Shown here: positions 27 through 29,719 of the stretch, piece by piece | How the letters are laid out: every line of letters starts with the position of its first letter | Position numbering within the stretch: position 1 is the first letter of the stretch | Assembly: GCF_003790525.1 (NCBI RefSeq) | Contig: NZ_CP033635.1 | Length of the DNA stretch: 64,000 nt | Strand: one strand, 5' to 3' | Origin: Escherichia coli | GTDB taxonomy: Bacteria > Pseudomonadota > Gammaproteobacteria > Enterobacterales > Enterobacteriaceae | The notes under the pieces: model-generated | Told to the model about the DNA's origin: nothing | The model's input: only the letters and a program-made list of their open reading frames with translations | Databases searched by the model: none | Translations under genes and position numbers: made by a program

Positions 27-641
27 TTAGCCGATTTTGTTACGTTGTGCGAATGTGTAAAGATCCATCAGTGATTTGCATTCTAATTTTTCCATCAAGC
101 GACTTTTATACGTGCTGACAGTTTTGTTGCTGATGAACATTTTTTCAGCAATGTCATTATTATCCTTGCCATCAAGAATATACCGCATGACACTAATTTC
201 TTGTTTCGATAAGGAGTCGAGTTTTTGCTGGTCGGACGTTAAACTTCCAACAAACCGGTTGAGAGAGAAGGGGAAATAGCAGTAGCCATTTTTTGCAGCT
301 TCAATAGCCGCAATGATATTGTTCATGCCTTCTTTTTTACTCACGAAACCATTAGCGCCAGCATCAGCACAATGTTTCCCGTAAAAATGGTCATTTTTAG
401 CGGAGACAATAATAATAATTCCGCTATATTGGCGCTTTCTCAGCGTTTCTAACACCTGGATACCGTTAACTCCGGGGATATCGACATCAATGATGACGAT
501 ATCAGGCTTAAGTGTTTCCACCCGCTGAACGGCACTTCCGCCTTCAGTCAACTCTGCTAAGATTTCAATATCGTTTTTGATCAATAAATTACGAATTGCT
601 GCGATAGCAAGAGGATGGTCATCAATAATTATTGCGTTCAT
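27..641 (-). CDS. evgA: Response regulator EvgA (NarL/FixJ family)
   Basis: 204-aa ORF, MNAIIIDDHPLAIAAIRNLL..., receiver domain plus C-terminal LuxR-type HTH; K-12 synteny with emrKY. Confidence 0.95.
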   Translation of the reverse strand: MNAIIIDDHPLAIAAIRNLLIKNDIEILAELTEGGSAVQRVETLKPDIVIIDVDIPGVNGIQVLETLRKRQYSGIIIIVSAKNDHFYGKHCADAGANGFVSKKEGMNNIIAAIEAAKNGYCYFPFSLNRFVGSLTSDQQKLDSLSKQEISVMRYILDGKDNNDIAEKMFISNKTVSTYKSRLMEKLECKSLMDLYTFAQRNKIG

Positions 642-5211: not shown

Positions 5212-6549
5212 TTAGATGATAAATGACAGCAGGAATGTGCCCGCCAGAGCGACGACCGAAGCGATAAATGTCGCGGTCGTATAGTATTTAAATGTTTCAT
5301 TGAGCGTAGCGCCGCAATATTGCTTCACCAGCCAGAAAAGCGAGTCCGTAACGATCGTGCAGCCAATCGCACCTGAACCGATAGCAATCGCAATAATTTC
5401 CGGGCTGATGTCGGGATACAGCGGCAGCATGGGTGCAACAATTGCCGTTGCCCCCATCATTGCCACCGTAGCGGAGCCCACTGCAGCATGCAGAATAAGT
5501 GCCACCAACCAGGCCAGAAGAATCGGGTGCATATGCATATTGGAGAGAATAACTGCCAGCGTATCAGCGAGACTGCTGCTTTTTAAAATGGCGTTGAATG
5601 CGCCTCCGGCCCCGATAATCAGCAAAATATTAGCAATAGAACCGAAGCCATTTTCCGTATGTGTGAGCATTGTCCCCATGCTCATATGCTGGCGTATACC
5701 CAACACATAATAGGCGACAAACACGGCGATAAACATGGCAGTAATAGGGTTGCCAATAAACTCAAGCAAGGTATACAAACCACTCTCACGCGCCATATTC
5801 AATTCGGCAATCGTTTTAACCAACATCAGCGCAATGGGTAGCAGTATGGTGAATAACGTTGCGCCTAATGACGGTAGTGTTTTTTCATCGCGAACTTTGA
5901 GATCGGCAAACTCTGTGGGTACAGGTTTAAAGGGCAGTCGTTGACCCAGAAATTTAAGGAAAAGTGGGCCACCGATCAGTGATGCCATCAGCCCAACCAG
6001 CAAACCGTAGACGATCACCGAACCGATATCTGCGCCCAGCTTATTGGCAACATATAAAGCAGCCGGATGTGGGGGAACCACGCAGTGCACTGCCATCAAT
6101 GCGGTACATAGCGGAATGGCCAGCTTTAACAATGAGGTATTGGTTTTTTTGGCAATTGAAAAAGCCAGAGGAATCAATAGCACGACGCCCACTTCAACAA
6201 ATAGCGTGATGCCGCAAATCAGGCCAACCAGCACCATAATGACATCAGCTGAAAGCCAGCGACAGCGTTGAAGTGTCAGACCAATTCTTTCTGCGGCCCC
6301 GGATACTTCCATCATTTTTCCCAGTATCGTGCCCAGGCCGATAACCGCAGCAAGGAACCCCAGCGTTCCGCCAATTCCACTTTCAATAGCATTTACCATA
6401 TCCAGTGGTCCCATACCCATCATCGTTCCCACGAAGAAGCTGGCCAGCAACAGCGCCAGAAACGGGTGGAATTTGAACTTCACGATGGTCAGTACAATTA
6501 ACACGATGCTGATAAGCAGCGTGCTCACAACCCAGATTTGAGAGTGCAT
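5212..6549 (-). CDS. dsdX: D-serine/gluconate permease (GntP family)
   Basis: 445-aa highly hydrophobic ORF directly upstream of dsdA on the same strand. Confidence 0.9.
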
Positions 6550-11018: not shown

Positions 11019-14000
11019 ATGAATAAGATATATAAAGTCATTTGGAACCATACAACCCAAAAATGGGATGTTGTTTCAGAATTGACGAGTTGTAGAAAAA
11101 AATGTAAATCAACTCGCTTAGGAATTGCTTTATCAGCAATGGTTCTGGGGGGCGCTATTGCAATTAATTGCAATAACGCAATGGCAGATGTCATATTGTC
11201 ACCAGACTGGCGTCCGGGTACGAATAACTCGGGTGTTGGGGCTGCAACAGTAAGTGGTAAAACCGAATACATCACTGGTCCAAATGTCGTCCAGTCTGGT
11301 GGGTCAGGTCTTATCTGGATGACTGTAGAACAGGCAATTTTAAATGGTTACACCACTGGAGATAATTTATCCGGATTGATTTACGTCAATACCGGAGAAA
11401 AAACAAAAACCATTACAGTGAAGGATGAGGTTACTGGCGCTTATCAAACACTTCAAGTGTTTGATACTGACTCTTTCTCACAACGCGATGCGGGGACTGG
11501 AGGAAATGAAACCATTCCTGGTTTTAGTGGCACTGCAGATTTTTTCAATGCGACACGTTTTGTAACAGCCAATAATGGCGGTACAGCTATTTTGGATGTG
11601 GGTTCACCAGCAATCGGTAATTTTTTTAAAAATACACAGCTTGCTGTAGCTGATGGAGAAGGTTCCTCTGTTGTATGGAACTCGGTCAATGATTTTTATT
11701 TTCAGCCTGGTGCAACCATGCAGGGGGGCGGCGTTACTCAAAAAATCATTGACTCAATGAAATATGCTGGAACAATTACTGATTGGGCGGGAAAAGTACA
11801 CCATATTAACTCTCTTGATGATTTAAAGCAATATAATCAATATTTGATAAAGTCACTAGAGGACAAAACGCTTTCTTATAAGCAGTATGATGCTGAATTT
11901 AATAAGGCCCTTATTGTCACCAAGCATAATTACAATGTGGATATGACCGCTGGGGGACGTATAGACTCAACTCCTTACAAAGAAAATGTAGGGCTGCTTG
12001 CTGTTCTCCATGCAACCAATAACGCACGAGCAATATTAGGTAAAACGGGTAAATTAACTGGAGTTCTTCCTGCCTATGGGAATGGAGGAGGGATCGTTGC
12101 AACTAATGGTGGGACCGGTGTTAATGAAGGGGTCATTGATGCCATTGGTACTGAAATGATTGCCTATCAAGACAGTACCATTGTTAACGATGGTACACTT
12201 TTTGTTTGGGATAATAATGATAAATATGCTCTCCAGGCAGAGGGGATGGTTGCCGGTAGTAATGGTTCTTCAGCCATTAATAATGGTGTTATTAATATTC
12301 GCCCATTTAAAAATGCTTTCGCTCCAGAGGGGATTAACACCGCAATTGTTGTTAGTAATGGGGGCATGGCAACAAATAAAGGCACAATAAATATTACTGC
12401 CGATGCATCAACTAATGATAATAATGGCAAAACACGAGGTGTAAATGTTGGAGCTGGAGGCTCTTTTATTAACTCGGCCTTCGGGAGCATCAATGTAGGT
12501 ATTGCGGAGGATAAAACTGCGACTCATTCGGCTGTGGGTTCTGTTGCGATTGAAGTACAAAATGGTGCAAACAAAGTCGTTAATGAAGGTACTATTTTTT
12601 TGGGCAGGGGGGCTCAGGGGAACTACGGAATCCTGGCAAAGGATGCCGGGAGTGTTGATGTGGTAAATAAAGGGACTATCACTATTGACGGTTATGACAG
12701 TGATGCACCTGCACTGAATGTTGGCATGCTGGCAAATAATAGCTCCGGGATGAAAAACTCCGGGATTATCAATGTTAATGGTCTGAACAGTACCGGGCTA
12801 CAGGTAATCAATGCAGGGCAATTAAATTCTGACGGTACGATAAATGTTGGCGGCGAGGGTATCAGTAGTGGTTTCCGTAACTATGGTGCCTGGGTGGAAG
12901 GTGCCAGAAGCAATGTTAATGTATCCGGAAAAATCAATCTTTCCGGTACTGGTGCTGTGGGGGTTTTTGCCAAAGATGGCGGCAGTCTTACCTTGTCAGG
13001 CAATGGTGCAGTGCTATTTGGCAGCAGCGATCAGATAGGCTTTTATGTCTATGGAAAGGACTCTGCCATTCATAATACCGGAAGCGGTGTTATGGATGTG
13101 TCCACTGAAAACTCAACATTATTCCGTATTGCCAGCGGTGCGACATTCCAGGGAACTGCAGATGCTTCTTCTGCACTTACGGCGTCTGGTAAGAACTCTT
13201 ATGCACTTATTGCCACGGGGAAATCGGATGGCGGTGTGGCCTCGACAGTAACGTCTGGAGGAATGACCATCAACCTGACGGGGGAGGGGGCTACAGCGAC
13301 TTTAATTGAAGGGGGAGCGCAGGGCACAATTGAAAGTAATGCCATTATCAATATGGATAATGCCAGTGCAATAGCCGGTATTGCGGATGGCAATGGCTAT
13401 GATATTTCCGGCAAACTCATTAATCCGAAGGACAAGACCACACTATTAACGGCGGGGGCTCAGTTAAGTTCCACCCAGGATAAAGTGACCGGGTATATCG
13501 CCCGTAATGGGGCCACTCTAAATAATACCGGTAATATCATCTTTACTGGAAAGAATACAGTGGGCGTCCGGGTTGAGGAGGGTGCTGTTGGTACCAACAG
13601 CGGAAATATTACAGTTCAGGATGGTGGTGTGGGACTAATTGCTAATGCCACACAAGATGTTACAACGATTAATAACTCGGGAAATCTCGTTCTCAAGGGG
13701 GGAGATAATGCTAACCGTACAACGGGTATAAAAGCATCTGGTACAACAACAACGGTTAATATGACCGCGGGTACTATATCTTTGCAGGGACAGGGGGCGA
13801 TTGGCGTTGAGGCCAGCAATAAAGGGACTGTTAACCTTGATGGCTCGGCAGTACCGAACTTTGCTTCTGACGGCTCTGGTATTACCGATCAGATTGCTTT
13901 TCGTATTATCGGAGATGGTGCAACCATTAAGACGAATATTGCACCGGGAACTCTGCTGGATGCCAGTGGGGAACGTTCTGTACTTTTCCGTATTGAAGAT

Positions 14001-17000
14001 GGGGCAAAACAGGCCGGCTCTTTGCTGATGAAAACCTCCGGGACAGGCAGCCGTGGTATCTGGGCCACAGGGAAAGGGAGCAATGTCCTGGCTGATGCTG
14101 GCAGTGATTTCCAGATCCTGGGCGCTCAGGCTCAGGGATTATATGTAACTGGTGGTGCGACAGCGACGCTGAAACAGGGGGCATCAGTTAACCTTGTAGG
14201 GGATGGCGCTGTTGTCGCGGAAGTTGACGGAAATGAATACGCTCTGGATGGCAGTATTACACAAACGAATACTGGCTCGGTTATTACCAATGAGGCAGAT
14301 ATCTCTTCGCCGCTGAATAATGCCAAGGGCTTTATTACGCGTAATCAGGGACTGTTGATTAACAGCGGCAACATTGATTTCACTACCGGTACAGATAATA
14401 TCGGCGTCTGGGTTGATAATGGTCGTTTTGAAAATACAGGAAGCCGTATAGCGGTCAATGGCGTTGCATTATTTGTTGAAGGTGAACACGCTCAGATTAC
14501 CAGCACGGGAGGGGATATCGTCGCTGTGGATGGTGAGGCTGCCATTAAGCTGGGGGCGGGCGCGTCACTGAACCTGGCAGGGAGTGGCCTGGGAACGATC
14601 GAAGGTCAGAAAAATGCGCATGGCATCCTGCTGGATACAGGGGCTGTGGGGCTGGTTATTGATGGTGCGAAAATCAATGTTAATGCTGCAGGTGCGGTCG
14701 GTCACGGGATTGAGAACCGTGCAGAAATTGAAGGCATTCAGTTAACCAATACGACTGAAATTAATGTGGCTGATGGCATTGGTGTGCGAACTTCTGCTTC
14801 TCTGGCCAAGACCAACAGCGGCACTATTAATGTAGACGGCAGTGGAATTGCACTGGCGTTCCAGAAAGCTGACGGAAGTGAAACCGATAATAACCTGGAT
14901 ATGTCTGACTCCGGCGGATTAGTCATTAATCTGAAAGGCACGGGCGGCACGGGTATTTTCGCCAACACTAAAGATGGTGCTGTCGTGAAGAGTGGTGCAA
15001 GTGTCAATGTTACACAGGCCGATGGCGGTTCCGCTCTGGTGGTTAACAATGCGGCCAGTGAAGTGGTTCAGAGCGGTAATCTCATCTCTGCTTCTCTGAG
15101 TCATGCCGTAGTGGATGCTTCAAAAGCACAGTCCTTTACCAATAAAGGTCAGATTAAAGCTGCGTCCGCCACCGGGACTGCAATGGCGTTTGATGACGCC
15201 GTGAATACCACCGTACTGAATGACAGCGGTGCTGAAATTCAGGGGGTTGTGGCTCTGAACGGCGGTGATAACACATTCACCAATAAAGGCAGTATTACCG
15301 GAACCGTCAGTGCAAAAGAGGGTAACAATACATTTTTATTTGATGATGGCAGCATACTGACAGGAGAAGTGGCTGCAGGAAATGGCAATAACAATGTAAC
15401 GCTCAATGGTAAGGCTCATGTTGATAAGGTTACTGCCGGTACCGGGAAGAACACCTTCACCATTAAAGGCGAAGGGGCAACCTGGAACCTGCTGGATGGC
15501 GGGCAGGGAGATTCTGATTCCCTGATTTTTGATAACGCCATTCATACGCTGGATTCTGCTGTAAAACTACGGAATTTTGAACATGTCGGGCTGAAGAACA
15601 GTTCGCTTGTCACTCTGAAGGAAGCTCTTGTGCTGACCGATGGGGGGACCGGCCCGGGTTCCGTCGATATTGAATCGGGCAGCGAACTGGCCATTATTCC
15701 CGCAGTTGCAGGCAACTTTACCTTTGATCCACTGTTAACAGGCAAAGGAACACTGTCTGCCCGTCTTGATGCCGACACATCTGCTTTTGAATTCAGCCAT
15801 AACGTCGGGGATCAATTTGCCGGAACTCTGAAGCTGGGTACCAGTAGCTTTGCTCTGGAAGGGCTGAATACGAGCGGGTTAACCCATGCAATGCTGATGT
15901 CTGAAACCGGGAATATCACAACGGTTGGCTCCGGTGTTCAGCAGATTGGCGGTCTTGGGTTCAATGGCGGAACGCTGATTTTTGGTTCCGTTATGCCGGG
16001 CGATACCATTGCCAGCAACAGTATTGAAACCTCTGCTGCAGGTACGCTGGATATCCGGGGGAAAGGCACAATTCAGGTCACCATGCCAGATGAAGTGATT
16101 AATGATATTCCGGCTGTTGATACCCGTAAGAATTTGCTGGAGCAGGATGATGCGCAGACCCTGGTCACACTGGTGAATGCAGCGGGTACCGTCACCGGTA
16201 CTGGCGGGCAACTGCAACTGGTGGATGAAAACGGGCAGGCTATTTCTCACAGTCAGACGTTTGATGTCACTCAGGGCGGTGAAGTTGTAGCTCAGGGAAA
16301 TTATGACTATAAGCTGCTGGGAAGCTCCGACGGTGTTAAAGGTGACGGACTGTACATAGGCTATGGGCTGAAGTCGCTGGATTTACAGGGAACCGGTGAT
16401 AAAGCGCTGGTGCTGACACCGAGAGCGAATGCCCAGGGACTGCAGACAGATCTTGGTGCACAGTTAACGGGGGCAGGGGATCTGGCCATCGAAGCTGCGG
16501 GGCAGGTTGTCACACTGTCTAACGGCGGTAATAACTACACCGGGGATACGCTGGTGCGCAGCGGCACACTGCAGATGGCAAATGATAATGTGCTTGGCGC
16601 TACAGGTAGCCTGAACGTTGCCAGCAATGCCGTCTTCAGAACAGACGGATACAGCCAGACGGTGGGTGCACTGCAGACAGAAACGGGAGCGCACATTCAG
16701 CTTGATAGCGGTAGTGTACTCACGGTCAGCGGCACGCAGCGTCAGCCGGGCGATGATAATGGTGGCATCATTGAAAACAATGTGCTGACCGGAGACGGTA
16801 CGCTGGCTGTCACGGGCAGCAATCTGACGGTACATGGCACCAATATCGGGTTCACCGGTAATGTCAGCCTTACCCGGGGTTCGCTGGTTGAAATGAACGG
16901 CGCACAGGGGCTGGGAAGCCAGGGCTCCATCAGCTTTGAAAGCCTTAATGATCGCCTGGCGATTGATATCGCCGACGGTAGCGGAGTCAGCAGTAACCTG

Positions 17001-18932
17001 AGTAAATCGCTTTCCGGAAAAGGTTCAGTGGGCATACTGAACACCACTGATCTGACACTTTCCGGAGATAACCGTAATTTCAGCGGTGAATTCCGTGTGC
17101 AGAAAGATGCTGCTCTGCGGGCTTCAGATGAAAAACACCTGGGCACCGGGCTGATTGACAGTGATGGTGTCACCTGGCTTACCGCCAGTGGAAACTGGTT
17201 ACTGAAGAATGATATTACTGGCTCCGGCGCTCTGGTGAAACAGGGGGCGGGTAATCTGATCATTAATCATGAGCTGACTTATACCGGTGATACCACGGTT
17301 GAGAATGGCGTTCTGATTGTCGGTGATGATTCAGTCACCCGTGCCGCTGGCGCGACGTTGTCAGGATCCAAAAACATTCATGTTCTTAATGGCGGCACAC
17401 TGAGTGGGCTGGGGACCGTTTCGGGTCAGGTTAATAACCAGGGAACACTGGCATCACTGAATGCTCTCTCAGGTTATGAAACGGCAGAGGCGGGCAATTT
17501 TACCGTTGGCTCACTGACCAATACCGGCGTCATTCGTCTGGCCGGTGGTAAGACAGGAAATACCCTGACCGTAAATGGCGATTACACTGGTGGCGGTACG
17601 TTAATTATCAATACCGTGCTGGGGGATGATACTTCTGCCACTGACAAACTGATTGTCACGGGTAACACCTCCGGTGATACCGGCGTGGTGGTGAATAATG
17701 TCCGGGGCCAGGGGGCTCAGACCGCTGACGGCATTGAGATTGTGCATGTCGGTGGGCAGTCTGACGGTAACTTCAGACTGCAGAACCGTGCGGTGGCAGG
17801 GGCATGGGAATATTTCCTGCATAAAGGTAATGCGGGTGGTACTGACGGTAACTGGTATCTGCGTTCTGAATTGCCGCCAGAACCACAACCGCAGCCGCAG
17901 CCACAACCGCAGCCACAGCCACACCCCACGCCGGATAAACCTGTACAGAAGGTCTATCGTCCGGAAGCGGGCTCTTATATTGCGAACATAGCGGCAGCCA
18001 ACACGCTGTTCAACATCAGAATGCACGATCGTGAGGGGGAAACTTACTATACCGATGTGTTTACTGGTGAGAAGAAAGCAACAAGTATGTGGATGCGTCA
18101 TATCGGCGGTCATAATCGCTGGAAGGACAGCAGTTCACAGCTGAATACGCAAAGTAACCGTTATGTTGTGCAACTGGGTGGCAGCATTGCGCAATGGACT
18201 GACGGTCAGGACCGTCTGCAACTGGGGATTATGGCCGGTTATGGAAATGAGAAGAGTTCCACGACATCCTCGCTTTCGGGATATAAATCTAAAGGTGCGA
18301 TCAATGGATACAGCACCGGTTTATACGGAACGTGGCAGCAGAATGACGGTAATGACAACGGGGCTTATGTCGATACCTGGATCCAGTACGGATGGTTTAA
18401 TAATACCGTTAATGGTGAAAAACTGGCTGCGGAGTCCTGGAAATCCCGTGGATTTACCGGTTCAGTGGAAGCGGGTTATACCTTTAAAGCCGGCGAATTT
18501 ACCGGTAGCCAGGGTAGTCACTATGACTGGTATATTCAGCCGCAGTCCCAGATCACGTGGATGAATGTAAGAGCCAGTGAGCATACGGAGAAGAATGGCA
18601 CGAAAGTTCAGCTCAGCGGAGACGGTAATATCCAGAGTCGTCTGGGCGTCAGAACTTACCTGAAAGGTAAGAGTGCGTCTGATGATAATAAGGCGCATCA
18701 GTTCGAGCCATTTGTGGAAGTTAACTGGATCCATAATACACGGAGCTGGGGTGTCAAAATGGATAATACGGCACTCAGTCAGGACGGAGCTACAAATATT
18801 GCTGAAGTCAAAACGGGTGTTCAGGGTAAATTGTCAGATAACCTGAATGTCTGGGGCAATGTTGGTGTTCAGGCTGGCGATAAAGGGTACAGTGATGCCC
18901 AGGCAATGCTGGGTATTAAATATATATTCTAA
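11019..18932 (+). CDS. Type Va autotransporter adhesin, AIDA-I/UpaE-like, 2637 aa
   Basis: Extended signal peptide motif MNKIYKVIWNHTTQKWDVVSEL; long Gly/Asn/Thr-rich beta-helical passenger; (PQ)n linker; C-terminal beta-barrel ending ...GIKYIF. Confidence 0.9.
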   Translation: MNKIYKVIWNHTTQKWDVVSELTSCRKKCKSTRLGIALSAMVLGGAIAINCNNAMADVILSPDWRPGTNNSGVGAATVSGKTEYITGPNVVQSGGSGLIWMTVEQAILNGYTTGDNLSGLIYVNTGEKTKTITVKDEVTGAYQTLQVFDTDSFSQRDAGTGGNETIPGFSGTADFFNATRFVTANNGGTAILDVGSPAIGNFFKNTQLAVADGEGSSVVWNSVNDFYFQPGATMQGGGVTQKIIDSMKYAGTITDWAGKVHHINSLDDLKQYNQYLIKSLEDKTLSYKQYDAEFNKALIVTKHNYNVDMTAGGRIDSTPYKENVGLLAVLHATNNARAILGKTGKLTGVLPAYGNGGGIVATNGGTGVNEGVIDAIGTEMIAYQDSTIVNDGTLFVWDNNDKYALQAEGMVAGSNGSSAINNGVINIRPFKNAFAPEGINTAIVVSNGGMATNKGTINITADASTNDNNGKTRGVNVGAGGSFINSAFGSINVGIAEDKTATHSAVGSVAIEVQNGANKVVNEGTIFLGRGAQGNYGILAKDAGSVDVVNKGTITIDGYDSDAPALNVGMLANNSSGMKNSGIINVNGLNSTGLQVINAGQLNSDGTINVGGEGISSGFRNYGAWVEGARSNVNVSGKINLSGTGAVGVFAKDGGSLTLSGNGAVLFGSSDQIGFYVYGKDSAIHNTGSGVMDVSTENSTLFRIASGATFQGTADASSALTASGKNSYALIATGKSDGGVASTVTSGGMTINLTGEGATATLIEGGAQGTIESNAIINMDNASAIAGIADGNGYDISGKLINPKDKTTLLTAGAQLSSTQDKVTGYIARNGATLNNTGNIIFTGKNTVGVRVEEGAVGTNSGNITVQDGGVGLIANATQDVTTINNSGNLVLKGGDNANRTTGIKASGTTTTVNMTAGTISLQGQGAIGVEASNKGTVNLDGSAVPNFASDGSGITDQIAFRIIGDGATIKTNIAPGTLLDASGERSVLFRIEDGAKQAGSLLMKTSGTGSRGIWATGKGSNVLADAGSDFQILGAQAQGLYVTGGATATLKQGASVNLVGDGAVVAEVDGNEYALDGSITQTNTGSVITNEADISSPLNNAKGFITRNQGLLINSGNIDFTTGTDNIGVWVDNGRFENTGSRIAVNGVALFVEGEHAQITSTGGDIVAVDGEAAIKLGAGASLNLAGSGLGTIEGQKNAHGILLDTGAVGLVIDGAKINVNAAGAVGHGIENRAEIEGIQLTNTTEINVADGIGVRTSASLAKTNSGTINVDGSGIALAFQKADGSETDNNLDMSDSGGLVINLKGTGGTGIFANTKDGAVVKSGASVNVTQADGGSALVVNNAASEVVQSGNLISASLSHAVVDASKAQSFTNKGQIKAASATGTAMAFDDAVNTTVLNDSGAEIQGVVALNGGDNTFTNKGSITGTVSAKEGNNTFLFDDGSILTGEVAAGNGNNNVTLNGKAHVDKVTAGTGKNTFTIKGEGATWNLLDGGQGDSDSLIFDNAIHTLDSAVKLRNFEHVGLKNSSLVTLKEALVLTDGGTGPGSVDIESGSELAIIPAVAGNFTFDPLLTGKGTLSARLDADTSAFEFSHNVGDQFAGTLKLGTSSFALEGLNTSGLTHAMLMSETGNITTVGSGVQQIGGLGFNGGTLIFGSVMPGDTIASNSIETSAAGTLDIRGKGTIQVTMPDEVINDIPAVDTRKNLLEQDDAQTLVTLVNAAGTVTGTGGQLQLVDENGQAISHSQTFDVTQGGEVVAQGNYDYKLLGSSDGVKGDGLYIGYGLKSLDLQGTGDKALVLTPRANAQGLQTDLGAQLTGAGDLAIEAAGQVVTLSNGGNNYTGDTLVRSGTLQMANDNVLGATGSLNVASNAVFRTDGYSQTVGALQTETGAHIQLDSGSVLTVSGTQRQPGDDNGGIIENNVLTGDGTLAVTGSNLTVHGTNIGFTGNVSLTRGSLVEMNGAQGLGSQGSISFESLNDRLAIDIADGSGVSSNLSKSLSGKGSVGILNTTDLTLSGDNRNFSGEFRVQKDAALRASDEKHLGTGLIDSDGVTWLTASGNWLLKNDITGSGALVKQGAGNLIINHELTYTGDTTVENGVLIVGDDSVTRAAGATLSGSKNIHVLNGGTLSGLGTVSGQVNNQGTLASLNALSGYETAEAGNFTVGSLTNTGVIRLAGGKTGNTLTVNGDYTGGGTLIINTVLGDDTSATDKLIVTGNTSGDTGVVVNNVRGQGAQTADGIEIVHVGGQSDGNFRLQNRAVAGAWEYFLHKGNAGGTDGNWYLRSELPPEPQPQPQPQPQPQPHPTPDKPVQKVYRPEAGSYIANIAAANTLFNIRMHDREGETYYTDVFTGEKKATSMWMRHIGGHNRWKDSSSQLNTQSNRYVVQLGGSIAQWTDGQDRLQLGIMAGYGNEKSSTTSSLSGYKSKGAINGYSTGLYGTWQQNDGNDNGAYVDTWIQYGWFNNTVNGEKLAAESWKSRGFTGSVEAGYTFKAGEFTGSQGSHYDWYIQPQSQITWMNVRASEHTEKNGTKVQLSGDGNIQSRLGVRTYLKGKSASDDNKAHQFEPFVEVNWIHNTRSWGVKMDNTALSQDGATNIAEVKTGVQGKLSDNLNVWGNVGVQAGDKGYSDAQAMLGIKYIF
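17874..17933 (+). repeat. Pro-Gln dipeptide repeat linker (CCGCAG/CCACAA units)
   Basis: PPEPQPQPQPQPQPQPHPTP in the translation; tandem 6-nt units in the DNA. Confidence 0.85.
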
Positions 18933-19510: not shown

Positions 19511-19947
19511 TCACTAGATTCTGACGATTTCCAGAAGGGAGATTCAGCAGGCCAGCATCTGTAATCATTCAGATTTTCTGGCTTGCTGCTAAATATGGTT
19601 GCTGAGAAAAATAGCAGTCCAGTAATTTATTCAGATTACTGAATATAATAATTTTTCAGGAACGGTTATGCTGAAGGTAGTATGTTTAATCGACACAATT
19701 ATTTGCTGTGTCTAATATGAGGTGACATTTTTATGATCACTGACCAGCAAGACTGACCCGTATTGATTAGCCTGATTATTGGCAACTTATTGGGGTAGTC
19801 ATTTTGACATCGAATGGGGGAGGTTTCCAGTTAAGTTCACGAATGCATGATGATTTGCGTTCACATATCGAAGTGCTGGTTGACTATACTAAGGATTTTA
19901 AGATAACTCACTGATTGTAAGTGGGTTATTGCGAGGGGGATGATAAA

Positions 19948-19966
19948 TGGTGTCCCTGCAGAAATC
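19948..19966. repeat. Degenerate copy of argW 3' end (putative distal att of the satellite)
   Basis: TGGTGTCCCTGCAGAAATC versus the argW 3' end TGGTGTCCCCTGCAGGAATC at 32636-32655 (17 of 20); about 12.7 kb from the tRNA. Confidence 0.5.
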
Positions 19967-20819: not shown

Positions 20820-22091
20820 CTATTCTTTCCAGTCAATCCCATCCAGTAAGCACCCTGCCTCATATTGCCCAACAACCCAGTCAAGATTGCAGGACTCATA
20901 GAAAGCGAGGCGATTATACTGTGGCTCGTTTTTTACCAGACCACGAACGGAGCCGCGTTGCCAGTACAGGCACAGATTGGCAAGAGGTGTGATCAGCACA
21001 GCATTGTCCGGGAAAAATGGAACGGTCACAGCCGGAAGATTCCCCAGCACGGGCTTTTTAATGATTTCCTCGTTAAGCAAAATTTCCTGATTCATCTGCG
21101 ATGGATCAAGACGGTTTATCAAAGGCCATTGTTTACGGACCAGAGTATTGTGACTGCATACGGCCACAATGCCTTCCTGCCACTGTTCATCAATCATGGA
21201 TTGCCAGGCATCCAGAACAAGTGCATCTATTGTATGGTGTGTACCGCGTGTATTGCTTGTCGGCGATGAAACAGAAAGACCGCTGATAACCCTTCCCGCT
21301 GCTTCGTTTCGAAACTTCTGCAACCATCCGACGCCGCAATCGTCACGGCCCGGATATGTTTCAGGATCAGATTGATCGGCATAGTGTGTGCCGTTAAAAC
21401 CAATCTGAATTAAATCCAGCCATTTCCGGCGTTCAAAAGCGGCACGGGCGCTTCCTTCAAGACCATTTGCGGACGCGTGAGCATCGACATTGTCGTAGCT
21501 CAACGCAAAATCAAAATTAACCTGCTCGCAGCGGTAGCCTCTTGAAACCAGTGAATGCGCCTGTAGTGGCGAACGGCGCTCGTGAGGTGGCGATGTACGT
21601 GCCAACGGCCGGGAAGCGTCTACCAGCACAACCTGACCTGATATATCCGTAACAGGCACGGGGGTTATTTCAGCAAGGAAATTTGCCTGCCATCCACTGG
21701 CAAGCGTTGCACTCTGGCGGGGAACGGGTTCAACTTCTGACGAATAGCGCGCAGTATCACCGGAAAAGTGCAAATCCTTCGGATGCTTTCCGGTTATCGA
21801 CTCGATAGCGCAATTGAAAACCATCTGAGACTGTTGATTTCGTTGTGATACAACATAATCAGCAGTGCAATTATAACACTCAATGCCGTCGTTATTACCC
21901 CCACCGCTTGCAGTATGCAGGGTGTGAAGCTCAAGCTCACGCTCCAGTTTTTGATATTCATTGTCCAGCGCGCGACGCGTCTCATCGCTTATGCTTGCTG
22001 TGTTTGCTTTCAGGCGATTCCGGGACATTAACTCCCTGAGTCGGCTCACTATATCAGCGCCGTGCAAATGTGAAATATTCAGACCGCCCAT
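20820..22091 (-). CDS. Hypothetical protein B of a two-gene cargo operon (about 423 aa), no recognisable family
   Basis: Start taken at the internal ATG (MGGLNISHLHG...) that overlaps the upstream gene stop as TAATG; the longer 470-aa ORF is read as an artefactual extension. Confidence 0.6.
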   Translation of the reverse strand: MGGLNISHLHGADIVSRLRELMSRNRLKANTASISDETRRALDNEYQKLERELELHTLHTASGGGNNDGIECYNCTADYVVSQRNQQSQMVFNCAIESITGKHPKDLHFSGDTARYSSEVEPVPRQSATLASGWQANFLAEITPVPVTDISGQVVLVDASRPLARTSPPHERRSPLQAHSLVSRGYRCEQVNFDFALSYDNVDAHASANGLEGSARAAFERRKWLDLIQIGFNGTHYADQSDPETYPGRDDCGVGWLQKFRNEAAGRVISGLSVSSPTSNTRGTHHTIDALVLDAWQSMIDEQWQEGIVAVCSHNTLVRKQWPLINRLDPSQMNQEILLNEEIIKKPVLGNLPAVTVPFFPDNAVLITPLANLCLYWQRGSVRGLVKNEPQYNRLAFYESCNLDWVVGQYEAGCLLDGIDWKE

Positions 22092-22801
22092 TACTGCCAC
22101 CCCCGGCAGAGTTCTCTGCCCTCCGCAAGGTCGCGCATTTTTTCTGGATTCTGTCGCGCCGCGCTCCATTGTACAGGTGAAGGGGCGTTCCTGATTGCGT
22201 GGCTTACCGAATCCGGCAGTTTCTCCGGGCAATAACGAAGCGGATTGGAGGCATCGCTCTCAATATCGTTAATCCGGCCGCGAATCAGCCCGACACTTTC
22301 AACAATATCTGCCATTTTCAGTGTTTCACATATTTTCTTTTCTGCGTTATACAGCGGCTGGCCAAGCAGCTCACATAAACCACGAATCAATAGCAGAGCA
22401 GGGGTCAGCTCGTTAATCAGTCCGGGAAGTGCTTTTGCAAATATCTCTGCCCGCAACTTATTATCAATGCTTTGGTAAGCACAGCCAGCCTCTGCCGCGT
22501 TATAACGACACTCCAGTAACCTGATGCGCGCCTCATCATGCAATACCCGCAGACGCTCAAGATTTTCTCGCGCCACACCCGCCTGAATGCATAATTTTGC
22601 GGAGGCTTCCGTTTTTGCGCCCAGCGCAGACAGGATTGAGTTCTGCCAGTCACGTTCGAGAGACTCCAGCTCCCCTTTCGTCTGTTCGATAGTCGCTTCC
22701 AGATTGGTGATTAATGATTCCTGTTCGCTGAGTTTTGCCATGGCCGTATCAAACTGTGCTTTACATGCCTGATGCCTGGCGCTTGCCTGAGTTATATCCA
22801 T
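22091..22801 (-). CDS. Hypothetical protein A of the two-gene cargo operon (236 aa), predicted coiled-coil N-terminal half
   Basis: Heptad-like, charge-rich N-terminus (KLSEQESLITNLEATIEQTKGELESLERD); no known motif recognised; first gene of the operon. Confidence 0.6.
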   Translation of the reverse strand: MDITQASARHQACKAQFDTAMAKLSEQESLITNLEATIEQTKGELESLERDWQNSILSALGAKTEASAKLCIQAGVARENLERLRVLHDEARIRLLECRYNAAEAGCAYQSIDNKLRAEIFAKALPGLINELTPALLLIRGLCELLGQPLYNAEKKICETLKMADIVESVGLIRGRINDIESDASNPLRYCPEKLPDSVSHAIRNAPSPVQWSAARQNPEKMRDLAEGRELCRGWQ

Positions 22802-23432: not shown

Positions 23433-23793
23433 ATCACGCTCCTCTTACTGGTGTGAAATTTGACCTATTATATCTCCTGCCGCCCCCTCTGGCTGTATCA
23501 AATAAACCCGCAGCAGTCGCCGCGTATTACGGACGGACGCACCGTTCCCATGCTCACTCGTCACATTCCCCGTATCAGTTCTCTCTTACCGTAAGAACGG
23601 CTCTGGCTGGCGATAAAACTAACCCGGTCGGGCATTCCCGCAGTCTTTAGAGAAAATGTAATTTACCCCCTGAAACGTGGGCTGTTCCCCCGTCACCTGC
23701 GCGCGAAAAACTCACCGTTTTTTGTGCACGCACGAAATCGCCCTCCGGGTGCGCCAGTACTGGGCCGGATGGGCAAAAAGTTACTCTAAAAAA

Positions 23794-23820
23794 TTGTGCA
23801 AATTTGTGCACTTTTGTGCA
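23794..23820. promoter_or_regulatory. Three direct TTGTGCA repeats at 10-bp spacing (operator-like)
   Basis: TTGTGCA at 23794, 23804 and 23814, with a fourth copy at 23722; helical phasing suggests a DNA-binding protein array. Confidence 0.35.
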
Positions 23821-24042
23821 GATGAACAATAGCGTGAAAAAGAGTGCTTTTGAGAGATTTTTTATGGCAACTGCGCCGCGTGTATTACGTTTTTTACCAT
23901 CCCCGCCGCGCATGTACATACTTCATTTTTCTGCCAGACAACAGGGCAACTCCCCGTGACTGACAGCCCCAAAAAATCAATGATTGATGTTGCATTTTTG
24001 TTAAAGGTTAGACCAGTTGTTTTAGGGCTCTGCCTCATAATC

Positions 24043-24366
24043 CGGTGGGGGGTGCGCAAAGCGGTTACAACGGTTACAACACTCAAAAACACCACTTAAC
24101 AGCATGATTTTAATGGATATTGTTTGTAACCGCTTTGCGGTTACACTGCGGTTACAACGGTTACAGGTTTCAAAAAGCACTTTATTATCAATCAATTAAA
24201 AACTTAACCTGTAACCGCCTGTAACCTAACAAAACGGTTACATGTAACCGCGTTGTAACCGCTTTTATAACTCATCGGACCAGTTATAATATATTGATAT
24301 ATAATACAAAAATAAGTAATTTTAAATTTGTAACCGTTGTAACCGCTTTGCGCACCCCCCCCCAAA
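24043..24366. repeat. Iteron cluster flanked by a ~30-bp inverted repeat (candidate satellite origin)
   Basis: GGGGGGTGCGCAAAGCGGTTACAACGGTTAC (24045-24076) and its reverse complement (24330-24363); at least 8 GGTTACA/TGTAACC copies in both orientations in between. Confidence 0.7.
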
Positions 24367-24611
24367 CTTTAGCGCGACCCTTTAAAATGTTAATTAAACT
24401 CACTTACTCTGTATCTCTCTCGTTAACTCTCTGTTATTGAAATGTATCTCTCCACTGTTTCACTCTTTCTGATAATCAGGGGAAGCAAAAAATTGATGGC
24501 GGCACTACTGCAATATGGCCACCATTGCATTGCTGTTACCGTTGGTTCTGGCCAACAAAAAAGGTCAGCGGGAAACTGACCTCTTTTGCTGTGAATGCGG
24601 CGTTCTGCGGG

Positions 24612-25616
24612 TTACTCTGCTGGCTCTTTTTCTTCGGTGATCACTATGTTGGCTACCGGGTTAAATCTCATGGCATCTGCCAGATAATCCGGTGCAAAAT
24701 GTGCGTATGCCATAGTCTGCTGAATTGTCGCATGCCCAAGGATTTTTTGTAGCGCAAGAATGTTGCCACCGTTCATCACAAAGTGACTGGCGAATGTATG
24801 CCGCAATACATGCGCAGCCTGCCCCCTCGGTAAATCGGGTTTTATTTTTTTTAATGCCCGGCAAAACTCTCTGTACTTCACATCAAACAGTCGCCCGGTT
24901 TCTTTTGTTTTTACGGCATCGCATATTTCCTGCGACACAGGCACCGTTCTTTTTCTACCGTTTTTGGTTTCCAGAAACGTTATTCTGTTATGAACTATTT
25001 GCTCTCCATGCAATCTGCTGGCCTCACTCCAGCGGGCTCCGGTACAAAGACACAAGAGCGCAACCCTTCGTTGATCTCCATTCAGCCCGTCAAGCAACAA
25101 TGTGACCTCGTTTTTTGATAAAAAGGCCATTTCCCGCTGCTTTACATAAAGAACAGGAATACCACGAACCGGATGCTCTGCATCCCACAAACCGATCTTT
25201 TTCAGGGCTGTAAACATCCCCGATAATCTGTTCATGTATCTGTTTGCTGAGGACGGCTTTAATCCTTCCGCAATTTTCTGCGATCGCCATGCAATGATTT
25301 TTAATTTGTTGAGTTCTGCCGCAAACATGTCAGCTCCAAGCTCATTAATAATTTTGCCAAGTTGCTGTTTATCCGTGTTTGCCTTTCGCCTGTGCTGACC
25401 GTGATAGACCCACCACAATTCCAGTAAATCGCTAAGCGTTCTCCGGTCGCGATAGCCCTGTATAAACTCGCGCTTTTCGGCGTTCGCTATGATGTACCGT
25501 TCAGTTGCTGTAGCTATCGATTTTTTGTCAAATATTCTTCTGATGCGCTTCCCTTTACGTCCGCATGGCCTGATATCGAGCAGCCACCGCCCATCATGCA
25601 TCTTTCTGATCGGCAT
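24612..25616 (-). CDS. Tyrosine recombinase (phage integrase family, XerC/D-like)
   Basis: Catalytic region ARWSEASRL ... HVLRHTFASHFVMNGGNILALQKILGHATIQQTMAYAHF; ATG at 25616 with GGAGG upstream, directly after the primase stop. Confidence 0.7.
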   Translation of the reverse strand: MPIRKMHDGRWLLDIRPCGRKGKRIRRIFDKKSIATATERYIIANAEKREFIQGYRDRRTLSDLLELWWVYHGQHRRKANTDKQQLGKIINELGADMFAAELNKLKIIAWRSQKIAEGLKPSSANRYMNRLSGMFTALKKIGLWDAEHPVRGIPVLYVKQREMAFLSKNEVTLLLDGLNGDQRRVALLCLCTGARWSEASRLHGEQIVHNRITFLETKNGRKRTVPVSQEICDAVKTKETGRLFDVKYREFCRALKKIKPDLPRGQAAHVLRHTFASHFVMNGGNILALQKILGHATIQQTMAYAHFAPDYLADAMRFNPVANIVITEEKEPAE

Positions 25617-25618
25617 GT

Positions 25619-28288
25619 TTAACTCCCCTCCTTGTAACTGAATATCCGGCATTTCAGTACTTCCGGCTCTCTGGCCTCGGCGACCCCTCTTCCGGCGTTT
25701 GCCTGTCTGGAGACCTCACTACGAATGGTTTTGCGGCCTGTCAAAGGTCGGGAACGTCCGGCTGCGAGCAACTCAATCATTTCGCGGTCAGTTCGGATCT
25801 CCACGCGGTGAATAGCGGCAGCCTGTGCCAGTTGCGGAATACTGATAGCAATCCCCTCGCGGCATCCCTTGCCGTAGTGGTTTACACCGTATTTTGTTAT
25901 GCCGTCCAGATAGTCGAACGCCTCCCAGAACGCTATTACTTCCGGCAAGTCATCCGTTACCGCTTTAACTTGTTCCGCTGCCATTCGTTCCAGTTCCTGG
26001 CATGTGGCATTAAGCCATTCATCCGGGATATCAATAACGCATTTCAGCGCCCTGACCAGCGCAATAAGTTGCGCGTGATTTTTGGCAATACGGGGATGGA
26101 GAATATTTTCGCAACCGCAAAGGCGGGTCGTTTCAGGCTCTGAGAGCGCCAGAAACATTTCCATAATTGCCCGTTCACGGCTGACTGCCCGATGAATAAA
26201 CCCTGACACCTTCTCAACGGGGTAGAGTTCCAGTCGTCTCGCCGCCAGCCGGGTATCAGACGAGTGGCGCTTTTTATCGGTATATATGCGAATCAGTCGC
26301 TCAATAATTGCAAGTGAGGCGTTTACCCTGGCATTCTGTGCAATCACGATAGCGCCCTTAAAATCCGGGTCATAGGTGTTGTTATTGTTGGTCTTAACGC
26401 CACGAACGCCGATACCGCCGCCGTTATAGAGGCTTTTCAGGTTATCGAAGTCAAACGCACCTCTTTTTTGCGCATTGCCTCCCCTGTCTGCTTCAATCAG
26501 AACAACAGGTAATCCGGCGACCTGTCCAAAGGTGCGCTTCCAGCCCGCCTCTGATCCTTTGGTTGGATCAACGCCTTCATAGTTGTCACGACCGCACAAC
26601 CGCCAGCAAAAATCAATCAATGTTGATTTACCCGTTCCGGGCTCCCCGGTGACTTCAAGGAAGGGGAAGGATTCTTCTTTATCCCGGATTTGTTCGCTGA
26701 ACAGGGAGCCCAACCAGAAAGCCAGGGTAATAATTCCTTTTTCACCAAAAGCCAGCCAGAGATCTTCCACCCAGGACTCTGTAAACTCATCCGGTTTTTT
26801 GTAGTTAATCTGTAATGTGGGTTTTTCGCTTAATGGTTTTGCGTTTATGCCATCAATTTCAAAATAATCTTCGTCATTGATTTCATAAGTTTTTCCCTTG
26901 TAAACAGCAATATCATTAAACAGCCATGCCCCAATCGCCTTGTTGTATCCGATAAAATCCTGACCAATAACCTCTTTTATTGCGGGAAGGTCATTTTTTA
27001 TTAATGCGTCAAGGTGCGCAGTTGTTCCGGTATAAATGCCGCCTTTTGCCACATGCAACAGGCGTTTTTTAAATTCAGATGCGGATGTCAATTGTCCTGA
27101 TGTAAAGGTGTTTTTCACCGTAGCACCATCCGGGAACGTAACACGGAAGTAATACCATGCTTCATCCGTGTCATTATTTCTAATGTAATAAAGCGGCGCT
27201 GGGTTACAGTTTGCGATTTCTTTTACTGCGCCAGATTCCTTAAGTGCAATTTTGCGCGCTTCATCCTCATCAACACTTCTCTCATTCTTGGCACGCTCTA
27301 CAGCTTTCATATAGCGCTCAATGTCCAGTTTGAACCAGAAAACACGGTTATCAAAAGTAAAATGAAATTCCTTCCGCTCACGAAAGGAAAATATTATTAG
27401 CGCCTTATCTCTCGGAGATTTCGCCAGCAATAAATCACCGTAATGACGGTATCTTTTCACATCATGGCCACGCAGCTTTCCGGCGATGTGTAAATCATTC
27501 CAGTCGCGTTTATTGTTGTTTTTACCTGGCAACGCCGCTGCCGTTCTCCAGCCGTCTTCGGCGCTGCGTTCTGCATGTTTTTTCGCGTAACGCTCACCCG
27601 CACGCCCGTTATCCAGCGCCCACACAATAACCGGACGGGGATTATCCCCGCACAGCTTCGCCAGCTCTTCCAGCGCCTTATCAGGGTAGTTCACGGCAGA
27701 CATGACAGAAACGGCCGCAATGCCATTCTGGTTAAGGCTGATGGCATCAAAGATGCCCTCACAAATCCAGATTTCTTTGGCCTTGCTTAAATCTGCTCCC
27801 GGATAAGCCCACCACAACCCCTTGTAGCTGCCGGAAAAATTCGCCTTGCGCGCGAAGCGTCCCGGTCGGTCTATGATGCGCTCCCACCACACGCCGTCAG
27901 CCAGCGTAAAACGCACAGTAGCGGCCTGTTCGCCGTTTTCCTTGTCCTGGTATCGCTCCTGAGTAAATGCGCCCTTCAGTGGCCCCACAGCAATATTGCG
28001 CGCCTCCTGAAGATAAGCTGCCACCGCTGCATATGGCTCGTCTTTCGTGCTGATATAACGATCTGACCATGATGAAAACACATCCGGGTAAAGTTCTTTG
28101 GTCAGCAGGTCTGTACCGCATTTATTTTCGCGCCCACAGTGTACGATGTACGGCCTTTCAAGGCTGGTAAACAACTCTTTCTTTCCACATTGCGGACAAA
28201 CACCATACCGGAGGTAGTTATTTTCTTCTTTGAAGTTGTAATCACGGATAAGACGGTTAATAATCTCTTTTCTGATGTCAGATTTCAT
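25619..28288 (-). CDS. Primase-helicase (P4 alpha / PICI Pri-Rep-like)
   Basis: N-terminal zinc finger CPQCGKKEL...HCGRENKCG, TOPRIM-like region, Walker A GEPGTGKST; start at the ATG with GGTGGAG SD rather than the upstream GTG. Confidence 0.85.
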   Translation of the reverse strand: MKSDIRKEIINRLIRDYNFKEENNYLRYGVCPQCGKKELFTSLERPYIVHCGRENKCGTDLLTKELYPDVFSSWSDRYISTKDEPYAAVAAYLQEARNIAVGPLKGAFTQERYQDKENGEQAATVRFTLADGVWWERIIDRPGRFARKANFSGSYKGLWWAYPGADLSKAKEIWICEGIFDAISLNQNGIAAVSVMSAVNYPDKALEELAKLCGDNPRPVIVWALDNGRAGERYAKKHAERSAEDGWRTAAALPGKNNNKRDWNDLHIAGKLRGHDVKRYRHYGDLLLAKSPRDKALIIFSFRERKEFHFTFDNRVFWFKLDIERYMKAVERAKNERSVDEDEARKIALKESGAVKEIANCNPAPLYYIRNNDTDEAWYYFRVTFPDGATVKNTFTSGQLTSASEFKKRLLHVAKGGIYTGTTAHLDALIKNDLPAIKEVIGQDFIGYNKAIGAWLFNDIAVYKGKTYEINDEDYFEIDGINAKPLSEKPTLQINYKKPDEFTESWVEDLWLAFGEKGIITLAFWLGSLFSEQIRDKEESFPFLEVTGEPGTGKSTLIDFCWRLCGRDNYEGVDPTKGSEAGWKRTFGQVAGLPVVLIEADRGGNAQKRGAFDFDNLKSLYNGGGIGVRGVKTNNNNTYDPDFKGAIVIAQNARVNASLAIIERLIRIYTDKKRHSSDTRLAARRLELYPVEKVSGFIHRAVSRERAIMEMFLALSEPETTRLCGCENILHPRIAKNHAQLIALVRALKCVIDIPDEWLNATCQELERMAAEQVKAVTDDLPEVIAFWEAFDYLDGITKYGVNHYGKGCREGIAISIPQLAQAAAIHRVEIRTDREMIELLAAGRSRPLTGRKTIRSEVSRQANAGRGVAEAREPEVLKCRIFSYKEGS

Positions 28289-28336
28289 ATATAAAACTCC
28301 ACCCCACTGCACCTTTTGCCGTGGGGTTTTTATTAA

Positions 28337-29289: not shown

Positions 29290-29719
29290 GGCACGCCTCC
29301 CGGACACGGATACGGGCAACAAAGACCAGACGGGATGCCGGAAGCAGGGCGCGCGCTTCGCGCTCACTGGCAGCGGTAACGGTATGAAGGCGGATATTTT
29401 TACCGTGGCACTGCATAAAGCGCCAGATAAAATCAGGGCGTGTTGATATAGCCATTTTGGCGGCTCCTTGATTAAGTTTACGGAGTCTCGCCAGCACGCT
29501 GTCAAACATGGTGGCGGGACGTAACAGGGTTGACAGACTGGCAATCAAGGAACCAGCGAGCGCAAAGGCTCCCCCATTACGCCCCGCCATAATACGGGGT
29601 AGGGTGGAATTACGGGCACAAAAAAACCGCATTACGGAAATATAGCGGCTACCCGCTTGATTGTTCAGGCTGTCAAACCCGGCACCCGCTTTATGAGGTG
29701 CGGGCAAACGATACGCCAT
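29282..29719 (-). CDS. Hypothetical satellite protein (about 145 aa)
   Basis: Start taken at MAYRLPAPHKAGAGFDSL...; same-strand array between AlpA and the primase. Confidence 0.4.
   Translation of the reverse strand: MAYRLPAPHKAGAGFDSLNNQAGSRYISVMRFFCARNSTLPRIMAGRNGGAFALAGSLIASLSTLLRPATMFDSVLARLRKLNQGAAKMAISTRPDFIWRFMQCHGKNIRLHTVTAASEREARALLPASRLVFVARIRVREACHV

Follow-up and report, generated by a model that had tools for sequence, protein, structure and literature searches.

An internal P2-family integrase gene behind the replicase of P4-like satellites, with alleles that parallel the integrases of P88-like phages and a possible role at helper attachment sites

P4, through its epsilon function, derepresses its P2 helper and thus provides a precedent for a satellite that acts on a helper prophage. 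To our knowledge, P4 has one integrase and no comparable gene after alpha. P2-like prophages are without integrase after derepression, and integrase is limiting for their excision. The protein described here, Int2, shares its family, its domain plan and the catalytic residues R-K-H-R-H-Y with P2 integrase (PDB 5C6K/5DOR) and with the integrases of the phages Chuche, P884B11 and P88. XerC and XerD belong to the same tyrosine recombinase superfamily and have the same catalytic motif, and our locus resembles those of Cre/loxP, ResD/rfsF of F and FimB/FimE, resolution or inversion recombinases located by origins or switches, in that a tyrosine recombinase gene adjoins an origin with inverted repeats on both sides. 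Plasmid resolution systems are often located by origins. In surveys of P4-like satellites, a single integrase per element is taken for granted and any additional one is discarded (PMC8628076, PMC10085698), so that a conserved internal integrase has escaped examination; our literature search, which covered satellite surveys and a 2026 preprint, yielded no earlier account of a P4-like satellite with a second integrase in its interior.

We analysed a window of 64,000 nucleotides of Escherichia coli DNA, which contains a P4-like satellite of approximately 12.7 kb at tRNA-Arg(CCT) beside yfdC (Table 1). Its left boundary, given by the partner of the att repeat, is also backed by a loss of homology in the satellite loci L144 and L145. 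The gene order is outer P4-type integrase, AlpA, isrK and C4 RNAs, Icd-like gene, small ORFs, primase, int2, origin, cos, ogr/delta, a 236-aa protein, a P2-family capsid homologue and mazEF. The tRNA-adjacent P4-type integrase, AlpA, the CI-type C4/isrK immunity RNAs, the Icd-like gene, the primase, the ogr/delta homologue and the helper-type cos are the features by which the element resembles P4 and belongs with the P4-like satellites. In contrast to P4, it has a second integrase and a P2-family capsid homologue, the latter instead of Psu, Sid and epsilon, none of which is among its annotated products. The first-pass annotation of this DNA had named an att-proximal P4-type integrase, and this assignment is confirmed: the outer integrase lies beside tRNA-Arg(CCT) and is the satellite's own chromosomal integrase. 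Rfam matches to the C4 antisense RNA (74.6 bits) and to isrK (50.6 bits) lie side by side at 29507-29701 on the minus strand, in or beside the Icd-like ORF, and this stretch is the P4-type CI immunity region.

Table 1. Coordinates of int2 and of the features discussed in the text (window positions; aa, residues of Int2)
Feature	Coordinates	Strand	Description
int2	24612..25616	minus	334-aa P2-family tyrosine integrase; ORF 25616 to 24612 of 334 codons plus stop; 100% identical annotated CDS in strain GF60
Int2 protein domains	aa ~1-55; 57-154; 165-308		Arm-binding N domain; core-binding Int_N; catalytic domain
Shine-Dalgarno sequence AAGGAGGGGAG	25623..25633	minus	Within the final primase codons
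Primase-helicase gene	25619..28312	minus	Toprim; PHROG 1139; 897 codons; upstream of int2 in the same operon
Hairpin and T-run	24553..24591	minus	Stem 24562-24582, followed by T-run; ~20 nt past the int2 stop
Allele-replacement segment	24840..25608	minus	Codons ~3-260: arm-binding, core-binding and first two thirds of catalytic domain
Origin-like iteron field	24044..24363	none	13 GGTTACA in both orientations, AT-rich core, 36-nt inverted repeat at the edges
cos-region homology	23655..23821		78-83% identity to P88-like (Xuanwuvirus) phages
AAAATCCTTGTTGATGAAAA	63191..63210	plus	pdxB start; empty attB core of the phage integrases most similar to int2
att repeat	32635..32655		3' end of tRNA-Arg(CCT) (32636-32710); partner 19947-19966
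Outer integrase gene	31195..32499	minus	P4-type, with arm-type DNA-binding domain; adjoins tRNA-Arg(CCT)

The primase gene ends with a TAA codon (25621-25619), and after the two-nucleotide spacer AC the ATG of int2 (25616-25614) begins at the third base past this stop, with the GGAGG of AAGGAGGGGAG positioned 10 nt 5' of the ATG. An earlier reading had the recombinase gene start right past the primase stop with its own Shine-Dalgarno sequence, which this TAA-AC-ATG arrangement bears out. A second in-frame ATG is present farther upstream at 25652; the int2 homologues all begin with MPIRK or MSIRK, and the RefSeq start of the 100% identical gene of strain GF60 is the same as ours. From the geometry of stop codon, Shine-Dalgarno sequence and start codon we infer that primase and int2 are translationally coupled. 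Other alleles keep this geometry, with TAA-GT-ATG in L146-149, an ATGA overlap in L144/L145 and a 7-nt gap in L061; coupling is not universal, because 455 nt of iterons lie between primase and int2 in the Salmonella relatives. The hairpin downstream of int2 is likely the terminator of the primase-int2 operon.

Int2 is matched by the Pfam families Int_N (PF24624, E=1.5e-23) and Phage_integrase (PF00589, E=6.7e-19) and by PHROG 1 (E=2e-74); the best solved structure is that of P2 integrase (5c6k, E=5e-80, residues 49-322), followed by HP1 integrase (1aih, E=4e-48). In an alignment of 11 sequences, the residues R195, K218, H269, R272, H295 and Y304, which align to P2 Int, are invariant, as are 18 residues of the N domain, and the N-terminal residues M1...Y41 are conserved with the phage integrases. 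A comparison with phage genomes found 81% identity to the integrases of Chuche, Xuanwuvirus P884B11, PhiR44_2 and Shae_phiSM, and approximately 50% identity to other P2-like phage integrases, including P2 Int. With the catalytic R-K-H-R-H/W-Y residues in a Phage_integrase fold, Int2 falls into the tyrosine recombinase superfamily, and with homology over the full length, including the arm-binding and core-binding domains, into the P2 family; it is a full-length heterobivalent phage integrase with all catalytic residues intact. The first-pass annotation was thus correct in describing a second intact tyrosine recombinase besides the att-proximal one, with R-H-R-Y conserved on alignment, but not in calling it XerC/D-like. 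The NCBIfam models score Int2 at 72.9 bits for XerC (cut-off 335) and at 72.5 bits for XerD (cut-off 330); these cut-offs and the homology to P2 Int, with its N-terminal arm-binding domain, rule out XerC/D identity. Unlike XerC and XerD, Int2 has the extra arm-binding domain, and no dif- or cer-like site was identified. A role in defence was also considered and rejected, as PADLOC gave no defence-system match for Int2.

Where Int2 differs from the integrases of P2- and P88-like phages is in its surroundings. The gene is not located at the end of the element beside the C repressor/Cox switch and has no adjacent attP; it lies inside the element, in the order primase-int2-origin, behind a satellite primase, and its C-terminal tail is without the phage P-arm sites. 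This position is shared widely. In every related satellite examined, int2 is directly downstream of the replicase gene, and the ORF is intact in each locus inspected, so that the primase-recombinase pair seen in the window recurs in related satellites from E. coli, Salmonella and metagenomes. The replicases that precede it are of three unrelated types, namely Toprim (897 aa), DUF927 (889 aa) and D5_N/Pox_D5 (596 aa). Pfam Toprim_2/Toprim_3 were found on the primase homologue of L061, which is 90% identical to the primase of the window. In E. coli MIN10 and ETEC1747 the same backbone has another outer integrase and is located between hpt and gcd, the Salmonella homologues of int2 (62-76% amino acid identity) follow the DUF927 primase or the D5_N/Pox_D5 replicase, and in a metagenomic satellite an int2 allele of 55% identity follows the same Toprim primase. 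An outer integrase of the Arm-DNA-bind_3 (P4) type is also present wherever the locus reaches the att end.

Next to int2 lies the iteron field, which holds 13 of the 18 GGTTACA motifs of the 64-kb window (24063-24344); a count of 18 was reached by none of 100 shuffles. The inverted repeat at its edges (24044-24079 and 24328-24363) is 97% identical over 36 nt. The inverted repeats and iterons pointed out previously beside the recombinase gene are therefore real, and they had been offered as its substrate, for origin inversion, multimer resolution or a second integration specificity. That Int2 resolves satellite multimers at the iteron region, or inverts it, would agree with the inverted repeat itself and with the location of int2 beside the origin both in E. 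coli satellites, where int2 is flanked by the origin downstream, and in Salmonella satellites, where the origin is upstream. We nevertheless regard it as highly improbable. Of 5426 complete E. coli genomes, 61 contain the origin region, and all 61 are collinear in one piece over 23960-24460; this single orientation argues against origin inversion and against an invertible DNA switch of the FimB/E type. The E. coli origin is approximately 96-97% identical at the nucleotide level across satellites whose Int2 DNA-binding domains are only 38-51% identical, and the same origin is found with three very different int2 alleles, which argues against origin-linked multimer resolution, as the recombinase and the neighbouring site do not diverge together and vary independently. 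Rather, iteron sequence and position track the replicase family: Salmonella satellites with another primase have iterons of the sequence GGTGTAACA or GGTGATACA, located between primase and int2, and the iterons change from GGTTACA to these sequences together with the replicase, at an Int2 identity of still 62-76%. Furthermore, no conserved DNA beside int2 could be aligned between E. coli and Salmonella satellites outside the int2 ORF, and simple resolvases do not typically have an arm-binding domain such as Int2 retains. In contrast to Cre/loxP, ResD/rfsF and FimB/FimE, site and recombinase do not vary together here, and no inversion polymorphism is seen. The pattern indicates that the iteron field is the origin of the primase and not a substrate of Int2, and the proposals of a recombinase substrate, of origin inversion and of multimer resolution can largely be set aside. 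Int2 is neither the chromosomal integrase of the satellite nor a recombinase for the adjacent iterons.

A clue to its function comes from the variation within the gene. When the window is compared with L145/L144, L061 and L073, a segment of int2 is only 32-65% identical between satellites, whereas the flanks are 90-100% identical; with L145, the backbone is 93-96% identical at the nucleotide level on both sides and the replacement is confined to the segment listed in Table 1, within the ORF. The replaced cassette contains no non-coding DNA, its junctions lie in conserved coding motifs, and the C-terminal tail ending in ...RFNPVANIVITEEKEPAE is shared. In the arm- and core-binding domains, the identity between alleles is 38-51%, against 61-64% in the catalytic domain. 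The allele of the window is present in only 28 of the 61 origin-bearing E. coli genomes; in the genomes examined, the same slot is otherwise occupied by the L144/L145 type (336 aa) or by the L146-149/L073 type (333 aa). All four combinations of int2 allele and outer att module were seen, as expected for independent assortment. The DNA-recognition part of Int2 thus behaves like a swappable cassette, and since int2 alleles swap on a shared backbone and outer att modules mix freely, a cis-acting site in the conserved backbone is unlikely. The window allele is at least 99.1% identical at the nucleotide level in 27 E. coli genomes, against only about 96% for the 2.2 kb around it, which suggests either a recent spread across diverged backbones or an unusually strong constraint.

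The cassettes have counterparts among phages of one genus. The nearest phage relative of the window allele is the Chuche/P884B11 integrase (81% amino acid identity), that of the L145 allele is the P88 integrase (77%), and that of the L146-149/L073 allele is the integrase of the phage L090 (85%, and 97% in the catalytic domain); the gpA region of L090 is 95% identical to that of Chuche at the nucleotide level. In a neighbour-joining tree, the satellite alleles fall at five or more positions among the phage integrases, and dS between the window allele and the Chuche int gene is saturated. In these comparisons, the int2 alleles of the satellites mirror the integrase alleles of the P88-like helper genus. 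The choice of helper genus comes from the cos homology, where P88, Chuche, Shae_phiSM and PhiR44_2 match at 78-82%. We take this stretch as the cos region, because the match in P884B11 is split over two places, one of them at the start of the record, and it probably identifies the helper genus as P88-like Xuanwuvirus. The cos-like sequence occurs, unannotated, in approximately 420 E. coli genomes, inside prophages and about 10-12 kb from their int gene, and prophages with a Chuche-type or an L090-type integrase have it at this distance.

One might speculate that Int2 is a second integration module, which inserts the satellite at the attB of the related phages, i.e. at pdxB for the window allele. 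Int2 is a complete integrase with an arm-binding domain, and the attB at pdxB into which its phage relatives insert is empty in this genome; the attB core occurs once in the 64-kb window. Prophages with 74-81% identical integrases have a Cox-C-Int border, and those of Citrobacter and Salmonella (74-79% identical to Int2) sit at the 5' end of pdxB, exactly at this core. In Chuche, attP consists of the 20-nt core AAAATCCTTGTTGATGAAAA flanked by tandem CGTGGACA arm pairs, and the P-arm pair lies within the phage-specific 3' end of int; the phage attP also brings a replacement 5' end of pdxB (MSETEKGLKILVDE...). In the satellite, similarity to the phage DNA ends inside the ORF, 60 nt short of the int2 stop, and the tail that bears the P-arm sites in the phage is replaced. 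A k-mer scan of the window with Chuche attP found the pdxB start only, and the pdxB core, searched for in three variants with up to 3-4 mismatches, is absent from the satellite of the window and from 13 other satellite loci. When three phage att regions were compared with these 14 loci by blastn, the sole match was one of 21 nt in Salmonella L058/L059 (E=0.007), which we take as a chance match. The swapped cassette comes without non-coding DNA, and the satellite loci that reach an att end all sit at the sites of the outer integrase, none being at pdxB or permuted. As the pdxB core is absent from the satellite loci, integration of the satellite at the helper's site is not supported; we consider this function of Int2 unlikely, and the second integration specificity suggested in the first-pass annotation is likewise unsupported.

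The arm-binding domain could alternatively serve binding alone. About 50 nt downstream of the outer int stop, at 31127-31145 on the minus strand, we found the arm-like tandem CGTGGACA-ATA-TGTGGACA, which fits both the P2-type arm-site consensus tgTGGaCa (PMC3448106) and the 11-nt spacing of the Chuche attP arm pairs. Together with further arm-like sites at 31381 and 31433, it forms a group of four same-strand sites within 320 nt, which was reached by none of 300 shuffles. Int2 might mainly be a sequence-specific DNA-binding or architectural protein, for example at this tandem, that regulates the outer int and alpA or assists the excision of the satellite. The tandem is kept in L001, L144 and L061 despite their three different int2 alleles. 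It goes, however, with the argW outer integrase module and is absent from L002, L145 and L010, which have the hpt/gcd module and retain int2; it may be a site for the outer integrase just as well as for Int2, and pure binding would not need the six catalytic residues that are conserved. For these reasons, we think a mainly architectural role unlikely.

It could further be argued that int2 is a passenger, that is, helper DNA that was repeatedly acquired by recombination and plays no role in the life cycle of the satellite, as the alleles do not form a single clade but are intermixed with phage integrases, and the replacement junctions lie in conserved coding motifs. The dN/dS ratio of int2 is approximately 0.1-0.16 (0.09-0.16 between satellites), which shows purifying selection, and the ORF is intact, with the Shine-Dalgarno and stop-start geometry preserved for every allele. 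The gene is also retained next to three different replicases, in satellites from E. coli and Salmonella as well as in metagenomic ones, and the window allele is conserved to at least 99% in 27 genomes whose flanks are conserved to about 96%. With these observations against it, the passenger reading appears quite improbable to us.

In our preferred reading, which we put forward tentatively and with somewhat less than even confidence, int2 encodes a functional helper-type integrase, forms the last gene of the satellite replication operon and acts in trans on the att sites of the helper. When the primase operon is switched on, Int2 would be made together with the primase. It would then bind the arm and core sites of a matching helper, either attP and attB at pdxB in the case of the window allele, or attL and attR of a resident prophage, and drive recombination of the helper in trans. 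Most plausibly this would be excision together with the Cox protein of the helper, with Int2 as the source of the integrase that P2-like prophages lack after derepression; in the alternative direction, Int2 would drive integration of the helper. Co-expression with the primase, activity in trans at the att sites of the helper and the direction of this activity are what we infer. Extended to the satellites as a group, it is conceivable, though we hold this with slightly greater reserve, that they carry a specificity-matched helper integrase which recombines the helper genome in trans, and that anciently diverged alleles are kept by selection for matching to helpers. The identity to the helper integrases is 77-85% and not near 100%, so that a shared att specificity is not assured, and the mirrored polymorphism could in part stem from gene flow during co-replication rather than from selection for matching.

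The co-occurrence of satellites and prophages was compared with this proposal. At least 11 of the 28 genomes with the window allele hold another P2-type int gene, clonal strains among them, and in at least nine genomes, clonal strains included, an L090-type phage int is accompanied by a second place of lower identity, which was taken as the satellite allele. Among the matches listed, most satellite-bearing genomes are without a matching resident prophage, pdxB is empty in the present genome as well, and the enrichment of co-resident matching prophages is weak and confounded by clonal strains. In STEC316, the one case inspected, phage tail genes start right after flk, at the position of pdxB in the window, and the satellite is located approximately 30 kb away.

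An integrase gene that is intact and under selection, fixed after the replicase and exchanged as a precise intragenic cassette, with alleles parallel to those of the helper genus, is what one would expect to see in a specificity module that engages the helper. If the proposal is true, it would define a new class of satellite-helper interaction, in which piracy extends beyond capsids and gene regulation to the site-specific recombination of the helper, and activity of Int2 at the att sites of the helper would account for the way in which satellites cope with P2-like prophages that are poorly inducible. For the delimitation of satellites in genomes, rules that select the integrase closest to the marker genes can draw the wrong borders for such elements.

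Several further features of these elements were noted. In L054, the D5-type replicase and int2 are separated by an ORF of 84 aa (5638-5892) with 84% identity to the C-terminal end of the DUF927 primase from sister satellites, and it is a remnant that shows replacement of the replicase with retention of iterons and int2. Some P2-like prophages with a Cox-C-Int context (L014, L077, L079, L121) carry a homologue of the satellite Toprim primase of approximately 50% amino acid identity, and gpA was undetected in their fetched flanks; the satellite replicase family thus also belongs to some Peduoviridae. The DNA just 3' of int2 in the Salmonella satellites is variable cargo, consisting of a Gp49/HigB-like gene with an HI1420-like antitoxin gene or of a MazE-like gene (L006/L058, 9079-9763; L059, 18589-18804; L054, 7518-7688), so that the interval between int2 and ogr may be a minor hotspot for accessory genes. 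The satellite's own P2-family major capsid homologue (20820-22232, minus strand) has an N-terminal extension and matches PHROG 70 and, below the cut-off, TIGR01551 (E=4e-39); it is preceded by the 236-aa protein (22091-22801, minus strand), which has no family match, and in L058, L061 and L150 this pair adjoins AlpA instead. Just beyond the left end of the satellite, a 2637-aa autotransporter with a (PQ)n run is encoded on the plus strand (11019-18932), which is annotated in GF60 as the phase-variable adhesin UpaE. The GF60 locus (L001) is otherwise 99.8% identical to the window and contains an IS21-family insertion with istA/istB between ogr and the cos region (8905-11212 in L001, corresponding to ~23440-23650), which is absent from the window.
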